Source: Thermoanaerobaculia bacterium (GTDB taxonomy: Bacteria; Acidobacteriota; Thermoanaerobaculia; Gp7-AA8). Taken from it: a stretch of 64,000 nucleotides of DNA. The notes below the pieces were generated by a model that worked only from the letters and a program-made list of their open reading frames with translations, had not been told where the DNA came from and ran no database searches. A program made the position numbers and the translations under genes. The stretch is from positions 69,423 through 133,422 of the forward strand of contig DASPHZ010000002.1 in NCBI GenBank assembly GCA_035629395.1, read 5' to 3'. Shown here in pieces: positions 2,201 to 56,892 of the stretch. Each line of letters opens with the position of its first letter. Position 1 is the first letter of the stretch.

Positions 2201-3337
2201 ATGACCGTCACCACCCCCCAGGCCCCCACCCTCCGTGAAGTCGCCGAGTCCGGCGGGAATCCGCTCCGGCTGAAGCGTGTGCATCATGTCGAGTTCTGGG
2301 TGGGGAACGCGAAGCAGGCGGCGTTTTACTACCGGAAGGCGTTCGGGTTTTCGCAGGTGGCGTATTCGGGGCTGGAGACGGGGAATCGGGAGTTTGCCTC
2401 GTACGTGCTCGGGCAGGGGAAGGTGCGGTTCGTCCTCTCGACGCCGTTCGATCCGAACCATCCGGCGAGCGAGCACATCCGGAAGCATGGGGATGGCGTT
2501 CGCGACATCGCGCTGCTGGTCGAGGACGCCGATTACGCGTACGCGGAAGCGGTGAAGCGGGGCGCGACGGGAATCGTCGAGCCGCATGATGTTGCGGGAG
2601 ACCACGGCACGATCCGCCGCGCGGCCATCCAGACCTACGGCGACACCATCCACTCCTTCATCAGCTACGCGAACTACGACGGCGCGTTCCTGCCGGGCTA
2701 CGTCGCCGCGCCCATCGAAGGGGAGCCCGTCGGCATCGCCGCGGTCGATCACATGGTCGGCAACGTCGAGCTCGGAAAGATGAACGAGTGGTGCGAGTTC
2801 TACAGCAAGGTGATGGGCTTCTCGCGCTACATCACCTTCGACGACAAGGACATCAACACCGAGTACTCGGCCCTCATGTCGATCGTCATGAGCGACGACA
2901 ACCGGGTCGTGAAGTTCCCGATCAACGAGCCGGCCGCGGGCAAGAGGAAATCGCAGATCCAGGAGTATCTGGAGGCGTACTACGGCCCCGGCGTGCAGCA
3001 CGTGGCGCTCCTCTGCGGCGACGTCATCAGCACGGTGACGAATCTCAAGAACAACGGCGTCGAGTTCCTCTCCGTGCCGGACAGCTACTACGCCGAGCTC
3101 CCGTCGCGCGTCGGCACGATCGACGAGCCGATGGAAGCGCTGCAGAAGCTCGGCATCCTCGTCGACCGCGACGAAGAGGGCTACCTCCTCCAGATCTTCA
3201 CCAAACCCGTGCAGGACCGCCCCACCGTCTTCTTCGAGATCCTCCAGCGCAAGGGCGCCCGCGGATTCGGAAAAGGGAACTTCAAGGCGCTGTTCGAGTC
3301 GATCGAGAGGGAGCAGGCGAGGAGGGGGAACCTGTAG
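2201..3337 (+). CDS. hppD: 4-hydroxyphenylpyruvate dioxygenase
   Basis: 378 aa. Tandem VOC domains. Conserved [16 protein letters not shown] and C-terminal FFEIIQRKG...[15 protein letters not shown] motifs. AAGGAG ribosome-binding site upstream. Confidence 0.92.
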
Positions 3338-3447
3338 CAGCGTTGCTGGCTGCTCGTTGGTGGTTGCTCGTGACGTGTCGCCCCGGCGATGGACTCCCGA
3401 GCACCAGCAACCAGCAACCAGCAAGCAGCAACCAGCAACCAGCCACA
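3338..3447. repeat. Inverted array of phased heptamer repeats (unit CAGCAAC / GTTGCTG), family B copy 1; exactly fills the hppD stop to hmgA start gap
   Basis: Left arm gttgctg-gctgctc-gttggtg-gttgctc. Unique core gacgtgtcgccccggcgatggactcc. Right arm cagcaac x5-6 running directly into the hmgA ATG. Confidence 0.8.
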
Positions 3448-4700
3448 TGTACCAATCCGGCTTCAACAACGAATTCGCCACCGAGGCCATCGCGGGCGTG
3501 CTTCCGGAGCGGGGCAACTCGCCGCAACGCGTGAAGTTCGGGTTGTACGCGGAGCAGTTCTCCGGCTCGCCGTTCACGGTGCCGCGTCCGATGCAGAAGC
3601 GCGCGTGGTTGTATCGGATCCGGCCGAGCGTGCTGCATGAGCCGTTCACGGCCGCGGACGCACGCCATCTGCGCGGGGCATTCGACGAAGTGCCGGTGCC
3701 GCCGAATCAACTGCGCTGGGATCCGCTGCCGATTCCCAGCGAGCCCACGGACTTCATCGAAGGCCTGACCACGATTGCCGGCAACGCCGGAGTGGGCATC
3801 CACCTCTACGCGTGCAATCGCCCGATGGAAGGGCGCTTTTTCTACGATGCCGACGGCGAGCTGCTGATCGTCCCCGAACAGGGCGCACTGAAGATCCTCA
3901 CGGAGCTCGGCATCCTCGACGTCAAACCGGGCGAGATCGCCGTGATCCCGCGCGGCACGAAGTTCCGCGTCGAAAACGAAAAAGCCCGCGGCTACATCTG
4001 CGAGAACTACGGCGCGAACTTCCGTCTCCCCGACCTCGGGCCGATCGGCTCGAACGGTCTCGCCAATCCGCGCGACTTTCTGACTCCCGCCGCCGCGTAC
4101 GAAGACGTCGAAGGCGACTTCGAGCTGCTCGCGAAATTCGACGGGCATCTCTGGTCCGCACGCATCGACCATTCGCCGCTCGACGTCGTGGCGTGGCACG
4201 GCAACTACGCGCCGTACAAATACGACCTGGCCAAGTTCAACGTCATCAACACGGTCTCGTTCGACCATCCCGATCCGTCGATCTTCACCGTCCTCACCTC
4301 GCCATCCGACACGCCCGGCACCGCGAACTGCGACTTCGTCATCTTCCCGCCGCGCTGGATGGTCGCCGAAGACACCTTCAGGCCACCTTATTTTCATCGC
4401 AATATCATGAATGAATATATGGGACTGATTTATGGTGTCTACGACGCGAAGGCGGAAGGCTTCGCGCCGGGCGGCGGGAGCCTGCACAACTGCATGTCCG
4501 GCCACGGTCCCGACGCCGCCACGTTCGACGCCGCGAGCAACGCGAAGCTCGAGCCGAAGTTCATCGGCGACACGCTCGCCTTCATGTTCGAGACGCGCCA
4601 CCTCATCCGTCCCACCCGCTTCGCCCTCGAGTCGCCGCTCCTGCAGCGCGACTACTGGCGCTGCTGGCAGGGCCTCCGCAAAAACTTCGAGCCTGCATGA
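3447..4700 (+). CDS. hmgA: homogentisate 1,2-dioxygenase
   Basis: N-terminal [14 protein letters not shown]...[22 protein letters not shown] is the typical HGD start. ~417 aa cupin protein. The listed ORF start at 3357 is a spurious extension through the repeat. Confidence 0.9.
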
Positions 4701-14257: not shown

Positions 14258-14365
14258 GGAGGAGCTATAGAGCTGTAGAGCGTTAGAGCCGTAGAGGGGT
14301 GCTCCCCTTCCCCTTTACCGCTCTACAGCTTTACCGCTCTACCGCTCTACCGCTCAACAGCTCCC
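14258..14365. repeat. Inverted array of phased octamer repeats (unit GAGCTGTA / TACAGCTC and variant TACCGCTC), family A copy 1, in the purL/oxidoreductase divergent region
   Basis: Reads gagctata-gagctgta-gagcgtta-gagccgta-gagg | gtgctcccc | ...taccgctc-tacagctt-taccgctc x3-aacagctc. Confidence 0.8.
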
Positions 14366-23311: not shown

Positions 23312-24963
<1,652 letters not shown>

Positions 24964-25003
24964 GAGCTGTAGAGCTGTAGAGCTTTAAAGCTTTAGAGCT
25001 TCA
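24964..25003. repeat. Five phased octamers agctgtag-agctgtag-agctttaa-agctttag-agcttcag, family A copy 2, around the palindrome GCTTTAAAGC
   Basis: Directly abuts the nadE TTG start in the divergent region upstream of the 25125 gene. Confidence 0.75.
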
Positions 25004-29825: not shown

Positions 29826-31094
29826 GTGAAGCGTCCCCTTCTATTCATCGTCGCAGCCGTATTGTGTCCATTGCGTTCCTGGACGCAGGAAGCGCCGCTC
29901 ACGATCGAGCGCGCCGTCGAGCTGGCGATGACGAGGAATGAGCGCGCCGCGATTGCCGATACGGCAGTGGAGGCAGCCGAGGCGCGGGTGCGGGCGGCGC
30001 GGACCCTGTTTTTTCCTCGGGTCGACGTGGATGGCGGCTACGCGACCGATTGGGGCAACGGCACCGAGCGCACGCTGTCGGCCGCGGCCACGGTGACGCA
30101 GCCGGTGTTCAACGCGCGCGCGTTTCCGCTCTATCGACAGCAACGGTATCTGCGGGAGGCCGCGGGCTTCGCGGCACAGGAAACGCGGCGCCTCGTCGGC
30201 TACGACGCGGCCGCGGCATTTCTGGCCACGCTGGGATTCGAGCAGGTGCTGCTCGCTGCCGAACGCCGCCGCGAATTCGCGCAGACGAACCTCGCCGATG
30301 TGCGCGCGCGATTCGAGGCGGGCCTCGTCAGCTCGAATGACGTGACGCGTGCGGAGCTCGAGCTCGCGACGGCGGTGCGCGGCGTCGCGCAGGCTTCGGG
30401 TGACGTGCAGGCCGCGCGTGTCGATCTCGAGAATCTGTTGAACGCGGAAGTCGACGGACCGCTCGCACCGCCGACGGCCTTGCTGGCCGCTGCGGCCGAG
30501 GCGCCCGCGACGACCGGGAACGGGATCGCGGAGGCGCAGGCTCGCCGCAATGACATCGCCGCCGCGCGTGCGGAAGTCGAGGCGCAGCGCGAGTTCGCGG
30601 ACGAGCCGAACGCGCGCTTCTTCCCGTCCTTACAGGTGCAGGCGCAGACGCGCAACGTCAATGACGGTCCGGTGACCTCGCGCAACAACGACGGTTTCGT
30701 CGGACTCACGTTCGCGTGGCCGGTATTCGACGCCGGCATCCGCGGCGCGGAGCGCGCGCAACGCACCGCGGAGCTGCGCGGACGCGAGCTCGAATTGCAG
30801 GCGTCCTTGCGGCAGGTCGAGCGCGAGCTGCGCAGCGCGGGCGTGCAGCTCACGACGGAGCAAGCCGCGCTGCGCGAAGCGACGGCCGCGCTCGAAGCCG
30901 CCCGCCGCAACCTGCACGAAACGACCGTGCTCTATCGCGAAGGCCTCGCCAGCGCCCTGGAGCTCGCGGACGCGACCCAGCGCCTGTTCGAAGCCGAAGT
31001 CGCGCAGGTGACGGCGCGGTACCGGATGGCGGTGGCGTATCTGTCGTTGGAAGAGGCGCGCGGGGAAGCGCCGGTGGGGGAGATAAGAAGATGA
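29826..31094 (+). CDS. TolC-family outer membrane efflux protein
   Basis: Signal peptide and tandem OEP repeats. 422 aa. Confidence 0.85.
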   Translation: MKRPLLFIVAAVLCPLRSWTQEAPLTIERAVELAMTRNERAAIADTAVEAAEARVRAARTLFFPRVDVDGGYATDWGNGTERTLSAAATVTQPVFNARAFPLYRQQRYLREAAGFAAQETRRLVGYDAAAAFLATLGFEQVLLAAERRREFAQTNLADVRARFEAGLVSSNDVTRAELELATAVRGVAQASGDVQAARVDLENLLNAEVDGPLAPPTALLAAAAEAPATTGNGIAEAQARRNDIAAARAEVEAQREFADEPNARFFPSLQVQAQTRNVNDGPVTSRNNDGFVGLTFAWPVFDAGIRGAERAQRTAELRGRELELQASLRQVERELRSAGVQLTTEQAALREATAALEAARRNLHETTVLYREGLASALELADATQRLFEAEVAQVTARYRMAVAYLSLEEARGEAPVGEIRR

Positions 31095-31185
31095 ATGCAG
31101 AATGCAGAATGCAGAATGCAGAATTGCGAAAAGGGATGCGGCTGAAGGTTCTCCTTTCTTCTTTCTGCATTCTGCATTCTGCGTT
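31095..31185. repeat. Hairpin built from phased heptamers (GAATGCA x4 ... TGCATTC x3), family C; bridges the OMP stop and the MFP start
   Basis: ~20-bp perfect stem gcagaatgcagaatgcagaat / attctgcattctgcattctgc. The second arm encodes part of the MFP lipoprotein signal peptide (SSFCILHSAF). Confidence 0.8.
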
Positions 31186-32251
31186 CGTCTTTTCCTGCTC
31201 CAGGGGTGATGCCGCGGCCAACGCCTCCGCTGGCGGGTCGGGGGCAAGCCGCCGCGGGGCGATGGAGTTTCCGGTCGAGGTGAAGGCGGTTGAGTCGCGT
31301 CGCGTCGAGTATTCCGTCAATGCGGTCGGGTCGCTCGACGCGTTCGAGCGTGTGGCTGTGACGGCGCGTGTGGCGGGTGCGATCGAGAAGGTGAATTTTC
31401 GCGAGGGGCAGCTCGTGTCCACCGGGTCGACGCTCGCGGAGATCGAGCCGGAGCGGTATCGCATCGCGGTCCGCGCCGCGGAGGCGGCGGTGACGAAGGC
31501 GCTGGCGTCGAAGGCGGAAGCGGAGGCGGGGTATGCGCGGCGGCAGGCGGCGAGTGAGAAGAATCCGGGGCTGATCCGCGGCGAAGAGATCGAGACGTGG
31601 CGGACGAAGGTGCAGACCGCGGCCGCGGAAGTCGCGGCGGCGCAGGCCGCGCTCGCGCAGGCGCGGCTCAATCTGCGCGACGCGTTCGTGCGCGCGCCGG
31701 TCGCCGGCACCATCCAGACGCGCACCGTCGAGACGGGACAGTACGTGCCGGTCGGCACCGTGCTCGCCACGCTCATGCGCCGCGACCCGCTCCTGCTGCG
31801 CTTCCAGGTGCCGGAGCAGGAAGCGATGCCGCTGCGTCCGGGCATCGTCGCGCGGTTCAACGTGGCCGAGGATCAGGCGCAGCATCGGGCGACGATCACG
31901 CATGTAGCCGCGGCGGCGAATCGCTCCTCGCGCATGGTCGACATCACCGCGAACGTCATCGACGCGAACCGCCCCGAGCTTCGTCCCGGCGCCTTCGCGC
32001 GCGTGACGGTGCCGATCGGTTCCGAGCGCGACGCGCCCGTCATCCCGCAGACCGCCATCCGGCCAAGCGAAAAAGGCTTCCTCGCCTTCACCGTCAATAA
32101 CGGCGTCGCCACACAACGCGTCCTCACCCTCGGCATGCGCACCGCCGACGGCCAGGTCGAAGTGAAGGAAGGCCTCCAACCCGGCGAGCTGCTGGTGATC
32201 CGCGGCGCGGAAGCGTTGCGGGATGGGGCGAAGGTGAAGGTGACGAGGTGA
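31136..32251 (+). CDS. efflux RND periplasmic adaptor (HlyD/MFP family), lipoprotein
   Basis: Lipobox MRLKVLLSSFCILHSAFVFSC. Coiled-coil plus beta-barrel MFP pattern. The ORF-track start at 30716 is an antisense-region extension. Confidence 0.8.
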   Translation: MRLKVLLSSFCILHSAFVFSCSRGDAAANASAGGSGASRRGAMEFPVEVKAVESRRVEYSVNAVGSLDAFERVAVTARVAGAIEKVNFREGQLVSTGSTLAEIEPERYRIAVRAAEAAVTKALASKAEAEAGYARRQAASEKNPGLIRGEEIETWRTKVQTAAAEVAAAQAALAQARLNLRDAFVRAPVAGTIQTRTVETGQYVPVGTVLATLMRRDPLLLRFQVPEQEAMPLRPGIVARFNVAEDQAQHRATITHVAAAANRSSRMVDITANVIDANRPELRPGAFARVTVPIGSERDAPVIPQTAIRPSEKGFLAFTVNNGVATQRVLTLGMRTADGQVEVKEGLQPGELLVIRGAEALRDGAKVKVTR

Positions 32252-32287: not shown

Positions 32288-32504
32288 GAGCTGTTGAGCT
32301 GTTGAGCCGTTGAGCAAGGCGAGGCGCCGAGAGCTGTAAAGCTGTAAAGCTGTAAAGCGGTAGAGGGGTCAAGCCCCTTTATAGCTCTACAGCTCTACGG
32401 CTCTACAGCTCAATGCCTCAACAGCTCAACAGCTCAACGGCTCAACAGCTCAACAGCTCTATAGCTCTATAGCTCTACAGCTCAATGCCTCAACAGCTCA
32501 ACAG
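32288..32504. repeat. ~215-bp inverted array of ~27 perfectly phased octamers (GTTGAGCT/GTAAAGCT ... AGCTCTAC/AGCTCAAC), family A copy 3; fills the MFP-to-RND gap
   Basis: Dyad centre ggggtcaagcccc. Right arm is 15 consecutive RGCTCWAY octamers, including an internal 34-bp duplication. Confidence 0.85.
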
Positions 32505-32519
32505 GCGAGAACCAATGCC

Positions 32520-35500
32520 ATGAAAATCACCCAGGTCTGCATCGAAAAACCGGTCTTCGCGTGGATGATCATGCTTGCTACCGTCGTCTTCGGCGGGGTG
32601 GCGGCGACGCGGATCGGGATCTCGCAGTTTCCGGACGTCGACTTTCCCACCATCAACGTCAGTGCGGTGTGGGAAGGGGCGGCGCCGGAGGTCATCGAGC
32701 ACGACGTCGTCGAGCCGATCGAAGAGGCGGTCATGCAGGTCGAGGGGGTGCGCAGCGTCACCTCGTCCTCGCGCCAGGGCTCGGGCAGCGTCACGATCGA
32801 GCTCGACCTCGCGCGTAACGTCGACCTCGCGCTGCAGGACGTGCAGACGCGCGTCGCGCAGGTGCAGCGCCGTCTGCCGCGTGACCTCGAGCCGCCCGTG
32901 GTCTCGAAGACCAATCCCGAAGACCAGCCGATCATGTGGATCGGCCTCTCCGGTCCGTACTCGCCGCAGATGCTCGCCGATTACGCGCGCTATCGCGTCA
33001 AGGAAAAACTGCAGACCGTGCCGGGCGTCGGCGAGATCCAGGTCGGCTCGGTCGAGCGCAACATCCGCATCTGGCTCGACTCCGACAAGCTCGACGAGCG
33101 CCGCGTCACCGTGAGCGAAGTCCTCGGCGCGATCGGCCAGCAGCACGTCGAGCTTCCCGCGGGCCGTCTCGAAACCTCCGGCCGCGAAGTGAACGTCCGC
33201 GTCCTCGGCGAGGCGTTCAATCTCGAAGAGTTCCGCCGCCTCGTCGTGAAGAACGTCGAAGGCGCGCCGGTGTATCTCTCCGACGTCGCCATCGTCGAAG
33301 ACGGCTTCGAAGACATCCGCCGCATCTCGCGCGTCAACGGCGAACCGGCGCAGGGCATGGGCGTGCGCAAGCAGCGCGGCTCGAACGCGGTGGCCGTCGC
33401 ACGCGGCGTGAAGGAATCGATCGCCGAGATCCAGAAGACGCTGCCGCCGGGCATGCAGCTCGGCATCAACTTCGACTCGACGCAGTTCATCGAAGAGTCG
33501 GTGCACGAGATCCAGTTCGAGCTGATGCTCTCGGTCATCCTCACCGCCGTCATCTGCTGGCTTTTCCTCGGCTCGCTCGGCGCGACGCTCAACGTCATCC
33601 TCGCGATCCCGATGTCGCTCCTCGGCACGGTCGCGTGCATCTACTTCTTCGGTTTCACGCTCAATACGTTCACGCTCCTCGGACTCGCGCTCGCCGTCGG
33701 CATCGTCGTCGACGACGCGATCATGGTCCTCGAGAACATCTTCCGCCACGCCGAGATGGGCAAAGACCGAAGACGCGCGGCGAGTGAAGGCACGGACGAG
33801 ATCAGCTTCGCGGCACTGGCGGCGACGCTCGCGGTGTGCGCGATCTTCCTCCCCGTCGTCTTCATGAAGGGGATCATCGGCAAGTTCTTTCTGCAGTTCG
33901 GCGTGACGCTGTGCGTGGCCGTGCTGCTGTCGTACGTCGAAGCGATCACGCTCGCGCCCGCGCGCTCCGCGCAGATGCTCAACGCCGGAGCGGAACGCCA
34001 GTCGAAGCTCGGCCACTTCGTCGACAAAGCATTCGACAAGCTTGCCGCCGCGTACGGCCGCGTGCTGGCAATGGGCCTGAAGCGGCCGGTCGCGGTGCTG
34101 ATCGCCGCGTTGCTCGTGTTCGCGGCGTCGCTGTACGTGTTCAAGAAACTGCCGAGCGAGTTCGTGCCGTCGCAGGATCAGAGCCGTCTCATGATCCGCC
34201 TGCAGACCGCGGTCGGCTCCGACATCACCGAAACGGACCGCGTGTTCCAGCGCGCCGAGCAGTACCTCCTGCAGCAGAAGGAAGTCGTGCGCGTGTTCGG
34301 CAGCGTCGGCGGATTCGGCGGTGGTGGCGGCAGCGTGAACAGCGGCATCCTCTTCGTCACGATGATCCCGCCGGACGAGCGCGTGTCGCAGCAGGAGTTC
34401 GCGACCCGCATCCGCAAGGAGCTCAACTCCTATCCCGGCGTGCGCGCGGTCGTGCAGGACCTCTCGCAGCAGGGCTTCACCGCGCAGCGCGGGTTCCCGA
34501 TCGAGTTTTCCGTGCGCGGTCCGGAGTGGGAGAAGCTGACCGAGCTTTCGAACGACATGCGCGAGAAGCTCGCCGCGAGCGGCTTCGCGACGGACGTCGA
34601 CACGGATTACCAGGTCGGCATGCCCGAGCTGCGCATCGTTCCCGATCGCGACCGCGCCGCGGACCTCGGCGTCCCCGTCGAGCAGGTCGCGACGTCGATC
34701 AACGCGCTCGTCGGCGGCGTGCGCACCGGCAAGTACTCCTCGGGCGGACGCCGCATCGACGTCCGTACGCGCCTGCTGGCGAAGCAGCGCACGCGCCCCG
34801 AGGACTTGTCCCGGCTGCGGGTGCGGACGGCTTCGGGGGATCTCATTCCGATGTCCGCACTGGTGAAAGAAGAAGAGCGCCCCGCGTTGCAGTCGGTGAC
34901 GCGCCGCGACCGCGAGCGCGCGATCTCGATCTACGGCAACGTCGCGCCCGGCAAATCGCAGAACGAAGCGCTGGCCTTCGTCGAACAGATCAGCAAAGAC
35001 CTGCCGCCCGGCTACCGCGCGGTGCTCGGCGGCTCGTCGGTCGCGTTCCGTGAATCGATGGGCCAGCTCATGTTCGCGCTCGTCCTCGGCGTGATCGTCG
35101 CGTACATGGTCCTCGCGTCGCAGTTCAATTCGTTCCTGCATCCCGTGACCGTGCTCTCGATCCTGCCGCTCTCGATCGCGGGCGCGGCGTTCGCGCTGCT
35201 CGTGACGGGGAAGACGCTGAACATCTTCTCGATGATCGGCCTGCTGCTGCTGATGGGCATCGCCAAGAAAAACTCGATCATCCTCGTCGACTACGCGGTG
35301 CAGAAGCAGGGGGAAGGCGCGACCGCGCACGAAGCGATGCTGAAAGCGGGGCCGGTGCGCTTGCGTCCGATTCTCATGACTTCGCTCGCGACGATGATGG
35401 CCGCCATTCCGCCGGCACTCGCGCTCGGCCCCGGCGCGGAAACGCGCGGACCGATGGCGGTGGCGATCATCGGCGGTCTCGTGATCTCGACCGCGCTCTC

Positions 35501-42069: not shown

Positions 42070-42284
42070 GAGGGCCCCCTGAGAGAGAGGTAAGGGACCG
42101 AATTTCGGCAGCCGGACCGTCGCTGCGCCGACGCGACGCAGGATTCCTGGCTTTGCGCCACCGTCTCGCGACGGTTTTGCCTTTTCGATTCGGTGGTTCA
42201 GTTGTACGGGACGGGGCAGATTTTAGAGACGGCCGGAAGGAAGTCAACTCAAATTGTCTGTCAGCGCTGGCGTAGCATGCCCGC

Positions 42285-51314: not shown

Positions 51315-52617
51315 TGCAGTACTCATCGCGCTTCTCGCGTCGGCGGCGCCCGGCCATGCGCAGGCGCCGGCCGGGACGCCGGCGGCCCAGACGAAGCTGA
51401 CGTTCGACGGCGCGTTGCGCCGGGCGCTCGAGGTCAACACGACCATCGAGCGTGCGCGTGAAGAGATCGGCGTGGCGGAGGCGAATCGCAGTTTCCTGCT
51501 GTCCGCGGTCATGCCGCGCATCGGGCTGAACGGCGACCTCACGCGCAACAGCATCGAGCAGACGTTCGGCGAAGGTCCGGAAGCGATCGCGATCCTGCCG
51601 CAGAACGACTGGGCGTACCGCGTGACGCTGTCGCAGCCGATCTACGCCGGACGCCGCGAGCTGCGCGCGTACTCGCAGGCGAAGATCGGCATCGAGAACG
51701 CGCGCGAAGGCACGCGGGCGACCGAGGATCAGACGCTGCTGCGGGTCTCCTCGAATTACCTCGCGGTCGTCAATGCCGATCGCCGCGTCGAAGTCGAGCT
51801 CCGCAACATCGAGCTCGCCGAGCGCCGTCTCACGCAGGCCCGCGCGTTCTACGAAGCGGGCGAAGTGACGAAGGTCGACGTGTTTCGCGCGGAGACCGCG
51901 CAGAAGGCCGCGCAGCGCCTGCTCGCCGTGGCGGAGCAGCAGCGCGAACATGCGGTCGCCCAGTTGCGCACCGATCTCGACATCGACGGCGACATCACGG
52001 TCGAAGCGCCGGCGCGCGAGCTGCCGCCGCTGCCCGCGGAAGGAGAGCTGATCGCGCGCGCGACGACCTCGCGCGCCGACATCGACATCGCCGAGAACAA
52101 CGTCCGCATCGCCGAGCTCGAAGTGCAGAAGCAGCGCGGCTTCTGGTTCCCCACCATCCGCTTCAACGGCGGCTACATCCAGCAGCGCACGCCGTTCCCC
52201 GCGAACTCGTACGCGTACGGCGGCCTGAACTTCGACGTCCCCATCTTCCAGGCGGGCGAAGTGCAGGCGCGCGTCGCCGGTGCGAAGAGCCGCGAGCGGC
52301 AGGCCGAGTCGTCGCTCGAAGAAGCGAAACTGGTCGCGCGCGAAGACGTGCGCCGCGCGCTCGCGGACCTGCAGTCGGCCGAGCGTGGCCTGCAGCTCGC
52401 GAGCGAGCAGATCCAGGCCGCGCAGGCCGAATACGAGCAGGCCTTCGAGCTCTATCGCGCCCAGGAAGCGACGTCGCTCGACGTCGCCACGTCGGAGGCC
52501 TCGCTCGCGGATGCGCGCCGCGCGGTCGCCGAAGAAACTCTCAATCTCGATCTTGCCCGCCTGCGCGTGTGGTACGCCGCGGGCGCCATCAAAGAAGCTG
52601 TCGGAGTGACGAAATGA
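51292..52617 (+). CDS. TolC-family outer membrane efflux protein
   Basis: Signal peptide AVLIALLASAAPGHAQA. OEP repeats. GTG start overlapping the tetR end. Confidence 0.8.
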   Translation: MQLKRASSAVLIALLASAAPGHAQAPAGTPAAQTKLTFDGALRRALEVNTTIERAREEIGVAEANRSFLLSAVMPRIGLNGDLTRNSIEQTFGEGPEAIAILPQNDWAYRVTLSQPIYAGRRELRAYSQAKIGIENAREGTRATEDQTLLRVSSNYLAVVNADRRVEVELRNIELAERRLTQARAFYEAGEVTKVDVFRAETAQKAAQRLLAVAEQQREHAVAQLRTDLDIDGDITVEAPARELPPLPAEGELIARATTSRADIDIAENNVRIAELEVQKQRGFWFPTIRFNGGYIQQRTPFPANSYAYGGLNFDVPIFQAGEVQARVAGAKSRERQAESSLEEAKLVAREDVRRALADLQSAERGLQLASEQIQAAQAEYEQAFELYRAQEATSLDVATSEASLADARRAVAEETLNLDLARLRVWYAAGAIKEAVGVTK

Positions 52618-53540
52618 CGAAGCGCCACCTGATCCTCACCCTCGCCCTCTCCACGCTCCCGTTCGCGGTCATCGGCTGCGGCGGTGACGAGTCGAAGGCC
52701 GAAACCTCGACCGCGACCGCGACGGCCGCGTCGACGACTGCCGCCGCGCCGGATCTGCCGGCCGACGTGCAGGACATCGCCAACGCCACCGCCGCCGCGA
52801 CGGAGACGTCCGCCACGGCCGCGGCCGAGTCGAACACGTTCTCCGCGACCGGCGAGTTCGTCTCGCCGGTGCGCTCGGAGCTCTCCGCCCGCATCCCCGG
52901 ACGCGTGGCGAAGATGTACGTCGACGAAGGCTCGCGCGTCCGCCGCGGCCAGCCGGTGCTCGAGCTCGAGACGGAGTACTCGCGTCTCAACCTGCAGGCC
53001 GCGAACGCGGAAGTCGCGCGCGCGAAAGCCGCGCTCGACGAAGCGGGACGCGACCTCGAGCGCAAGCGCGGGCTGAGCGCGAAGGATTCGATCCCTCGCG
53101 CGACGCTCGACCGCTCGCAGGCGATGTTCGACCAGGCCAACGCCGCGCATCAGGCCGCGTCCGCGCAGGCTGCGTTGCTGCGCCAGCAGATCGCCGACGC
53201 TACGCTGCGCTCGCCGGTCGACGGCATCGTGGCCGAGAAGCGCGTCGACATCGGTGCACGCCTCGGCGACGGCGGCGTGGCCTTCGTCGTCGTGCAGACC
53301 TCCCCCCTCAAGCTCCGCTTCGCCGTCCCCGAGCGTTACCTCGGCCGCATCACCGCCGGCGACCAGGTCACCGCGCGCGTCGACCCGTACCCGAACGAAG
53401 CCTTCACGGGCGTCGTGAAGACCATGGGCGGCGTGATCGACCCGAAGACGCGAACGATGTTCGCCGAGGCGGAGTTCGCGAACCGCGACGGACGTTTGCG
53501 TCCGGGACTGTTCGCGAGAGTGGAAACGAAGCTCGATTGA
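52614..53540 (+). CDS. efflux RND periplasmic adaptor (MFP), lipoprotein
   Basis: Lipobox ...LPFAVIGC. ATGA overlap with the OMP stop. Thr/Ala-rich linker. Confidence 0.8.
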   Translation: MTKRHLILTLALSTLPFAVIGCGGDESKAETSTATATAASTTAAAPDLPADVQDIANATAAATETSATAAAESNTFSATGEFVSPVRSELSARIPGRVAKMYVDEGSRVRRGQPVLELETEYSRLNLQAANAEVARAKAALDEAGRDLERKRGLSAKDSIPRATLDRSQAMFDQANAAHQAASAQAALLRQQIADATLRSPVDGIVAEKRVDIGARLGDGGVAFVVVQTSPLKLRFAVPERYLGRITAGDQVTARVDPYPNEAFTGVVKTMGGVIDPKTRTMFAEAEFANRDGRLRPGLFARVETKLD

Positions 53541-53625
53541 TGTTGCTGGGGGCTGGTTGCTCGTTGCTTGCGATCCTCGCGAGACCTCACGAGCCACCAG
53601 CAACTAGCAACCAGGAACCTTAGCC
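53541..53625. repeat. Inverted phased-heptamer array (GTTGCTG ... CAGCAAC), family B copy 2; exactly fills the MFP stop to RND start gap
   Basis: Reads gttgctg-ggggctg-gttgctc-gttgctt | gcgatcctcgcgagacctcac | gagccac-cagcaac-tagcaac-cagg. Architecture matches the 3338-3447 element. Confidence 0.8.

Positions 53626-56892
<3,267 letters not shown>

Follow-up and report, generated by a model that had tools for sequence, protein, structure and literature searches.

Within the window (the whole stretch of 64,000 nucleotides that was analysed), the spacers of the hppD-hmgA and MFP-RND junctions are, on a modest balance of probability, two copies of a GTTGCTG/CAGCAAC family belonging to a genome- and lineage-wide, REP/REPIN-like population of palindromic tandem arrays. 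In the best-supported reading, these elements are not devices built for the tyrosine catabolism or efflux operons. Similar arrays occur between tandem, convergent and divergent gene pairs and are not confined to operons. Each element begins with a G/T-rich tandem array, whose unit is 7 or 8 nt long, and continues through a short core free of repeats into a C/A-rich reverse-complement array; each Thermoanaerobaculia genome would hold a few unit families, with several copies of each at gene boundaries in all orientations. The elements occupy junctions that otherwise measure 0-5 nt and stay at the site while the unit turns over. Arm length would be altered by replication slippage, and DNA-level copying, for example by template switches inside one palindrome or from copy to copy, may keep the arms complementary.

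Inverted repeat arrays in the window

The first element occupies positions 3338-3446 and, together with its flanking genes, is organised as follows.

2201-3337, + strand: hppD (4-hydroxyphenylpyruvate dioxygenase), open reading frame; Pfam Glyoxalase_5/Glyoxalase on the identical gene in L001
3335-3337, + strand: hppD stop codon TAG, followed by the linker CAGC
3342-3369, + strand: 5′ (G/T-rich) arm, starting 4 nt past the stop
3370-3398, + strand: core of 29 nt, containing a small GC hairpin (GTCGCC CCGG CGAT)
3399-3446, + strand: 3′ (C/A-rich) arm, its last base directly preceding the hmgA ATG
3447-4700, + strand: hmgA (homogentisate 1,2-dioxygenase), start ATG 3447; Pfam HgmA; relatives keep the N terminus MYQSGF

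The 5′ arm consists of four degenerate GTTGCTG units (GTTGCTG GCTGCTC GTTGGTG GTTGCTC) and the 3′ arm of GAGCAC followed by six CAGCAAC-type units (CAGCAAC x2, CAGCAAG, CAGCAAC x2 and CAGCCAC), such that the arms are unequal (4 versus 7 units) and the gap between the array and the hmgA ATG is 0 nt. No Shine-Dalgarno (SD) sequence was found in the last 20 nt before this ATG. The last codons of hppD (AGG AGG GGG) contain a perfect AGGAGG at 3317-3322, ending 11 nt before the stop; folding of the hairpin could bring this motif near the hmgA ATG and so create a possible split ribosome-binding site. By its HmgA homologues, the window belongs to a Thermoanaerobaculia (Acidobacteriota) genome. The spacer recurs in an independent assembly (L001) with only two SNPs, at window positions 3375 and 3425, and the array is therefore not an assembly artefact. 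One of these differences turns CAGCAAG into the consensus CAGCAAC. Given that 2 of the 19 differences between the window and L001 across 14.7 kb fall inside the 109-nt spacer, the array is slightly hypervariable. Translation of the array as an N-terminal extension of HmgA, initiated at TTG 3357, was considered and rejected on three grounds: conservation of the ATG/MYQSGF start, spacers whose lengths are not divisible by 3 and, in empty junctions, an ATG that directly follows the stop.

The second element, at 53541-53625, lies in a TetR-OEP-MFP-RND operon for which Pfam assigned TetR, OEP, HlyD and ACR_tran domains.

52569-53540, + strand: RND periplasmic adaptor (MFP); Pfam HlyD; stop TGA 53538-53540
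53542-53569, + strand: 5′ arm of four units, GTTGCTG GGGGCTG GTTGCTC GTTGCTT
53570-53590, + strand: core of 21 nt (GCGATCCTCGCGAGACCTCAC)
53591-53619, + strand: 3′ arm, GAGCCAC CAGCAAC TAGCAAC CAGGAAC C
53626-56892, + strand: RND pump gene (AcrB family); Pfam ACR_tran

Here, TTAGCC separates the 3′ arm from the RND ATG at 53626, leaving a gap of 6 nt, and the variant unit CAGGAAC supplies a weak AGGA. The database homologue of the MFP has 308 aa, which implies a start near 52614 rather than at 52569. With this start, the OEP and MFP genes of the operon overlap (OEP stop 52617); the array is absent from this overlap, which sits 1 kb upstream of the array-bearing MFP-RND junction.

A search for heptamer dimers with up to 2 mismatches returned 12 in the 64-kb window, all of them within these two loci, compared with 0.26 in shuffled sequences. 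Tandem Repeats Finder counted 5.9 copies of a 7-nt unit at hppD-hmgA and 4.0 at MFP-RND, and the predicted RNA folds of the two regions had energies of −52.3 kcal/mol (z −3.0 versus shuffles) and −46.7 kcal/mol (z −3.7 versus shuffles). By both dimer count and folding, the two arrays of one design that the initial annotation placed at these junctions are thus confirmed as lying above chance, and both fit the inverted heptamer-array class, with a tandem 7-nt unit, an intergenic position and a G-rich-first reverse-complement partner array. The mutual complementarity described for the arms was likewise borne out, the predicted secondary structure being one long stem-loop running from stop to start. 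Several particulars required amendment. The right arm, described as reaching to within 0-3 nt of the ATG, does so at hmgA but not at the RND gene; the left arm of GTTGCTG-type heptamers is present but degenerate, with one of four units exact at each locus; and the core of ∼25 nt was found to be 29 nt at hppD-hmgA and 21 nt at MFP-RND. Sequestration of the downstream start region, which had also been proposed, holds in part: the hmgA start codon is paired only in a fold that includes the coding flanks, and a fold of the spacer by itself leaves the 10 nt before this codon unpaired.

No T-run terminator and no sigma-70-like promoter was found in either spacer, and the stems run directly up to the ATG. 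The lack of a T-run terminator at both loci speaks against attenuation as the reason for the presence of the elements. Neither locus gave an Rfam match at the gathering level. The sole match of this kind in the window was a c-di-GMP-I riboswitch aptamer (RF01051, 59.7 bits) at 42104-42191 on the − strand.

Four further arrays of the same build, composed of other units, were found in the window.

14262-14363, no strand assigned: 8-nt-unit array (GAGCTGTA ... TACCGCTC/TACAGCTC) between the divergent purL (−) and FAD oxidoreductase (+) genes
24963-25001, no strand assigned: single array without a partner arm (AGAGCTGT/AGAGCTTT), directly adjoining the nadE (−) start codon
31088-31196, + strand: GAATGCA x5 ... 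TGCATTC hairpin at an OEP-MFP junction, its 5′ arm overlapping the OEP stop at 31092-31094
32288-32504, + strand: large 8-nt-unit hairpin (GAGCTGTT / AGCTGTAA ... TACAGCTC / AACAGCTC) that fills the first efflux operon's MFP-RND junction

The last of these is flanked by a stop codon at 32249-32251 and an ATG at 32520. In the 31088-31196 hairpin, the core contains the MFP ATG (31136), and the hydrophobic part of the lipoprotein signal peptide (MRLKVLLSSFCILHSAFVFSC) is encoded by the 3′ arm; this start is confirmed by comparison of the signal peptide with those of L244 and L245. The GAATGCA x5 5′ arm is a 41-nt insertion between stop and start, the stop directly adjoining the ATG in both relatives; the element hints at how such hairpins can arise. 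The corresponding database entry (P0241, 386 aa) starts at an ATG overlapping the OEP stop, in which case the whole hairpin would be translated. In the first efflux operon of L244, ATGA or TGA-ATG overlaps are present at both of the junctions that bear elements in the window.

Orthologous junctions and a census of tandem-armed hairpins

A metagenome scan with HmgA yielded 80 more loci. At an HmgA identity of at least ∼80%, 23 hppD-hmgA junctions were available (the window and L001 counted), among which 18 contained a tandem-armed hairpin, 2 contained other long palindromes (L133 and L141) and 3 had a spacer of 0-4 nt (L124, L132 and L148). Four more-distant relatives (72-73% HmgA identity) had spacers of 2-3 nt. 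The repeat unit differed by lineage and included GTTGCTG, GGTTGTC, GGGCGTC (with GAAGCCC), GGTGCCTC, GGTTACGC, GGGAGTC, GAGTCTCA and GGTGATC. Every element-bearing spacer folded as one hairpin when each was compared with its own shuffles (median z −5.1, range −2.8 to −13). The 5′ foot of these hairpins lay 0-7 nt from the stop and the 3′ arm usually ended 0-6 nt before the ATG, which was often preceded by 8-14 nt of unpaired C/A-rich sequence. No consensus structure was obtained from 11 orthologous spacers with MAFFT and RNAalifold because the arm copy numbers differ. On the HmgA tree, empty junctions are nested among filled ones (for example, L148 beside L147), which implies that gain and loss have been precise and repeated. 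The palindromes of L133 (8824-9021; 198 nt, z −13) and L141 (682-851; 170 nt, z −11.7) are near-perfect and without clear tandem units; thus, other kinds of hairpin also land exactly between the hppD stop and the hmgA start.

Comparable behaviour was observed at other sites. The purL/oxidoreductase element keeps its position and flanks in L001, L122 and L127, but its unit is GAGCTGTA in the window and L122 and GAGGTAC in L127. At the MFP-RND site, tandem arrays are present in the window, L240 and L241, and a hairpin without clear tandem units in L242; the site is a 5-nt junction in L239 and holds a plain 42-nt hairpin in L243. The hmgA and MFP-RND junctions share one family in each of three lineages: GTTGCTG in the window, GTTGTCG/GTTCTCG in L122/L240, and GGGCGTC with GAAGCCC/GAAGCCT in L121/L241 (from the same JGI sample). 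Given about three families per genome, the chance probability of this agreement is ∼0.05, and the comparison is suggestive of unit families that change in parallel at separate loci.

To place these elements in a wider setting, a detector combining Tandem Repeats Finder with local inverted alignment was run on 205 sequences and returned 125 tandem-armed hairpins: 91 with a 7-nt period, 24 with an 8-nt period and 10 with a 9-nt period. The median length was 95 nt and the median core 27 nt. Density in close relatives was ∼0.1 elements per kb, in a set that is enriched for the selected hppD-hmgA junction. Gene context was called from GC3 periodicity and local frames in the flanks, a heuristic that is noisy and not a gene finder; by this heuristic, 99 elements were resolved, of which 60 lay between tandem, 23 between convergent and 16 between divergent genes. 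Elements began a median of 4 nt after the stop, a distance that fell within −10 to +9 nt for 72 of 112 gene ends, and the median distance from element to the nearest in-frame start was 10 nt. Random positioning relative to genes, which the initial annotation had treated as evidence against its reading, was not observed: placement was strongly non-random with respect to both stop and start codons.

With one genome taken per species, at least 119 stretches of CAGCAAC x3 were found across many phyla, and, among the matches listed, the [GTTGCTG]n-core-[CAGCAAC]m design was seen again in Acidobacteriota, Gemmatimonadaceae, Planctomycetota, Bacteroidota, Myxococcales and others. The cores of CAGCAAC-family elements are 4 to 187 nt long and for the most part unrelated, and no general motif was shared across 103 cores. 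Orthologous cores do share short motifs (TCGCC..GG at hmgA and GCGAT..TCGC at the pump junction). Given that short GC-rich motifs (TCGCC..GG and CGCGAGA) recur in subsets of cores that include non-orthologous copies (e.g. L042 and L060), core similarity is weak evidence of orthology. The motif CGCGAGA is common to the window core at 53570-53590 and to CAGCAAC-family copies in different Thermoanaerobaculia genomes (L028, L080 and L081). Families also recur within single contigs, as in L129, L143 and L175. In a test for block inverted duplication that has low power, the order of unit variants was mirrored between arms at p<0.05 in 4 of 38 informative elements. A link to phage was rejected: of 34 viral contigs with CAGCAAC x3 (IMG/VR, L205-L238), 33 hold a single array without an inverted partner and 1 holds a hairpin.

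Arm polarity, RNA stability and competing explanations

The G-rich arm came first, whichever strand is read, in 113 of 123 hairpins (113 to 10) from several phyla. This polarity was observed in tandem (54 to 4), convergent (21 to 2) and divergent (15 to 1) contexts, and in the CAGCAAC family (28 to 0), other units (66 to 8) and the hmgA junction (19 to 2). Single arrays more often lay nearer the gene on the 5′ side of their G-rich strand (22 to 7). For ordinary, non-array hairpins after stop codons, the polarity was 29 to 22 and not significant. Since convergent pairs follow the G-first rule, nearness to start codons alone cannot explain the polarity; one escape from this argument may be that families spread across all contexts while selection acts only at start-adjacent sites.

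Selection on the mRNA stem, which would be expected to show as G-U pairs favouring the sense strand, was assessed by comparing sense with antisense transcripts. In tandem-context elements, the sense RNA was the more stable in 25 of 60 cases (25 versus 35, not significant), and at the hmgA junction it was the more stable in 9 of 31 spacers (9 versus 22; p 0.04, with samples that are not independent). For the hppD-hmgA spacer of the window, the values were −49.3 kcal/mol for sense and −59.3 kcal/mol for antisense. No sense-strand G-U signature was found in the tandem-context elements or the hmgA-junction spacers. The lack of a stability advantage for the sense RNA argues against selection on the mRNA stem.

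These data bear directly on the proposal of the initial annotation that the elements are dedicated devices for translational coupling or attenuation, with a stem selected to hide the hmgA and RND start regions, which we consider unlikely. An effect of this kind is mechanistically reasonable given the stem geometry, the exact filling of the spacer from stop to start, the lack of an SD sequence before hmgA and the coupled 0-4-nt junctions of element-free relatives. It also accords with the location of 4 of the 6 window arrays inside operons, with a C/A-rich side that is the longer next to the hmgA ATG in 21 of 29 spacers, and with the GAGGA or AGGA SD-like variants carried by several last units in hmgA-junction orthologues. 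As the reason for the presence of the element, however, coupling is opposed by convergent and divergent copies with the same polarity, by dozens of unrelated units, and by sense RNA that has no stability edge and is the less stable form at the hmgA junction. In addition, folds of the spacer by itself often leave the final 8-14 nt upstream of the ATG unpaired, and close relatives manage without any element. The longer C-rich side, the SD-like last units and the AGGAGG of hppD are weak signs that translation might be tuned at the hmgA junction. SD-like codons occurred at the hppD end in 10 of 19 filled and 0 of 3 empty junctions, numbers that are too few to judge.

Equally improbable, in our estimation, is a role at RNA 3′ ends in stability or processing, as for REP, through an exonuclease shield, U-tract-free termination or an RNase III cut. 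The tight association with stop codons (a median of 4 nt over 112 gene ends) and the convergent location of 23 of the 99 context-resolved elements would be expected of such a role, and stems of ∼30-40 bp are long enough for RNase III. Against it stand the 16 divergent copies and the copies that abut start codons, the absence of a sense-strand G-U signature and of a T-run, and the G-first polarity, which it does not predict.

Under the preferred reading, in which the spacers belong to a dispersed population, an effect on the transcript would nonetheless be expected at hppD-hmgA because of the stem geometry, with a stop codon and an SD-less start at its feet. In the operon transcript, an imperfect stem of ∼35-40 bp would form, its 5′ foot at the stop codon and its 3′ foot at the start. 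Ribosomes ending hppD would unwind the base of the stem and either release or re-initiate next to the ATG, so that hmgA translation would depend on completion of hppD, preserving the coupling that empty junctions reach with 0-4 nt. Inside operons, the downstream gene is probably translated in dependence on ribosomes that finish the upstream gene. The stem might also serve as a barrier to 3′ exonucleases or as a substrate for RNase III. Selection for a function, as opposed to mere tolerance of repeat DNA, could lie behind each of three features: the long persistence of the elements at a site, their exact stop-to-start placement and their strict G-first polarity.

A non-autonomous mobile element of the MITE/REPIN type, with a cognate transposase that targets stop/start junctions, is quite improbable, even though it would account for genome-specific unit families with several copies per contig, for precise presence and absence at orthologous junctions, and for one family at both the hmgA and MFP-RND junctions in three lineages. 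No target-site duplication was detected in filled compared with empty junctions, arm copy numbers vary freely, no conserved internal sequence was found for the elements, and no transposase was identified in the genome fragments covered. The missing transposase, target-site duplication and conserved interior also weigh against the REP/REPIN-like reading. Cores are not conserved within a family. Measured against MITEs, the elements thus lack a target-site duplication and have unrelated interiors (4 to 187 nt); measured against the many near-identical copies of REP/REPIN, families do recur within contigs, with sharing confined to the arms.

Strict polarity, taken with genome-specific unit families that would change in parallel at separate loci, could indicate an active polar DNA process instead of passive slippage, which we regard as very unlikely. 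Given that the G/T-rich arm precedes the C/A-rich arm on either strand, the 3′ ends exposed if the core broke would be G/T-rich, like those of telomeres or correctly oriented Chi sites, and two versions of such a process would fit: a templated enzyme that writes repeats on 3′ ends, or arms that act as recombination signals and rescue hairpin-induced breaks. The specific proposal of a polar repair product or signal at the 3′ ends of palindrome-centre breaks, whether by telomere-healing-like addition or as Chi-like, RecA-loading GT-rich tracts, would draw on the G-first rule in all contexts and several phyla (113 of 123), the proximity of single arrays to the 5′ neighbour (22 versus 7), the equal polarity reported in Xanthomonas, the sequence GCTGGTTG, which is one base off the E. 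coli Chi sequence GCTGGTGG, and parallel unit change at two loci per genome, which fits a trans-acting template; but it is highly improbable given units too diverse for one Chi sequence, cores that survive between the arms, the lack of a known enzyme candidate and a chance probability of only ∼0.05 for the two-locus family match in three lineages.

Relation to published repeat families

Catalogues of short tandem heptamer arrays in bacteria go back to about 1990, and the general kind considered here, intergenic heptamer arrays that sometimes form inverted pairs, is already published. The long simple sequence repeats (LSSR) of 5-11 nt reportedly described by Mrazek in 2007 and the cyanobacterial STRR heptamers reportedly described by Mazel in 1990 are said to be direct arrays. 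These repeats resemble the present elements in having short tandem units with a strong preference for 7 nt (here 91 of 125), a mostly intergenic location and a scattered taxonomic distribution; they are not known to have been described with self-complementary pairing or a polarity rule, both of which are features of the present elements. Intercistronic stem-loops that couple translation or create “split” ribosome-binding sites are known, for example, from phage MS2 and T4 gene 38. Like the hairpins described here, they span an upstream stop (or SD) and a downstream start, and initiation needs unwinding or a particular stem geometry. By contrast, stems of the MS2/T4 type are single and conserved in sequence, whereas the present elements form a dispersed repeat population in all gene orientations.

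REPINs are reportedly known from the work of Bertels and Rainey. Together with REP/BIME elements (Di Nocera 2013, PMC3733652), they served as a comparison class. The likeness extends to an intergenic location, hairpin formation, genome-specific families of many copies, a position often just after stop codons, longevity and a non-coding nature; the roles proposed for them are in mRNA stability and DNA structure. REP sequences, however, are imperfect palindromes of 20-40 nt with a GTAG or CGTC head and a cognate RAYT (an IS200-like Y1 transposase). The present elements have tandem-unit arms starting with GTTG, no head and unconserved cores, with no RAYT linked to them so far, and no GTAG- or CGTC-headed palindrome was found at either window locus.

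The closest published case is that of the inverted GGGAATC arrays of Xanthomonas, for which 70-75 inverted pairs per genome, “always convergent” and near the upstream ORF, were reported (Rehm et al. 2015, PMC4692102). These too are intergenic tandem heptamers with the G-rich array first and a capacity to form stem-loops, and their copy number varies between species while the repeat type at a site is preserved (PMC4692102). They differ in that one G4-prone unit dominates the genome, and a quadruplex role was proposed (PMC4692102). The Thermoanaerobaculia elements have many non-G4 units, several families per genome, 8-nt as well as 7-nt units, exact stop-to-start filling and turnover of the unit. 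TAACTGA direct repeats before start codons have been described in Beggiatoaceae, Cyanobacteria and Bacteroidetes (MacGregor 2015, PMC4679880). As here, heptamer arrays end a few nt from the start codon and a link to translation was suggested; unlike here, there are 169 direct sets compared with one “indirect” set, a single unit is used, and there is no partner arm after the upstream stop (PMC4679880).

Literature searches returned no description of these elements in Acidobacteriota, of their occurrence or density there, of the exact filling of otherwise overlapping junctions, of site persistence with unit turnover, of a cross-phylum polarity rule or of genome-specific unit families of such arrays. 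The elements show three regularities: exact stop-to-start placement, G-first polarity in every orientation, and families that are genome-specific yet shared between loci. The clade offers natural experiments, with one junction either empty or filled by hairpins of differing units across dozens of relatives. Should the polarity reflect a DNA process, it would represent an undescribed way of making and maintaining palindromes, and should the stems control coupling or mRNA fate, ∼1 in 10 gene junctions in these genomes would be affected, as estimated from the density of ∼0.1 elements per kb. The densest stretch seen was in L129, where five tandem-armed hairpins of three families (GTTGTTG, GCAGTTC-type and GGTTGGC) lie within 8.8 kb.
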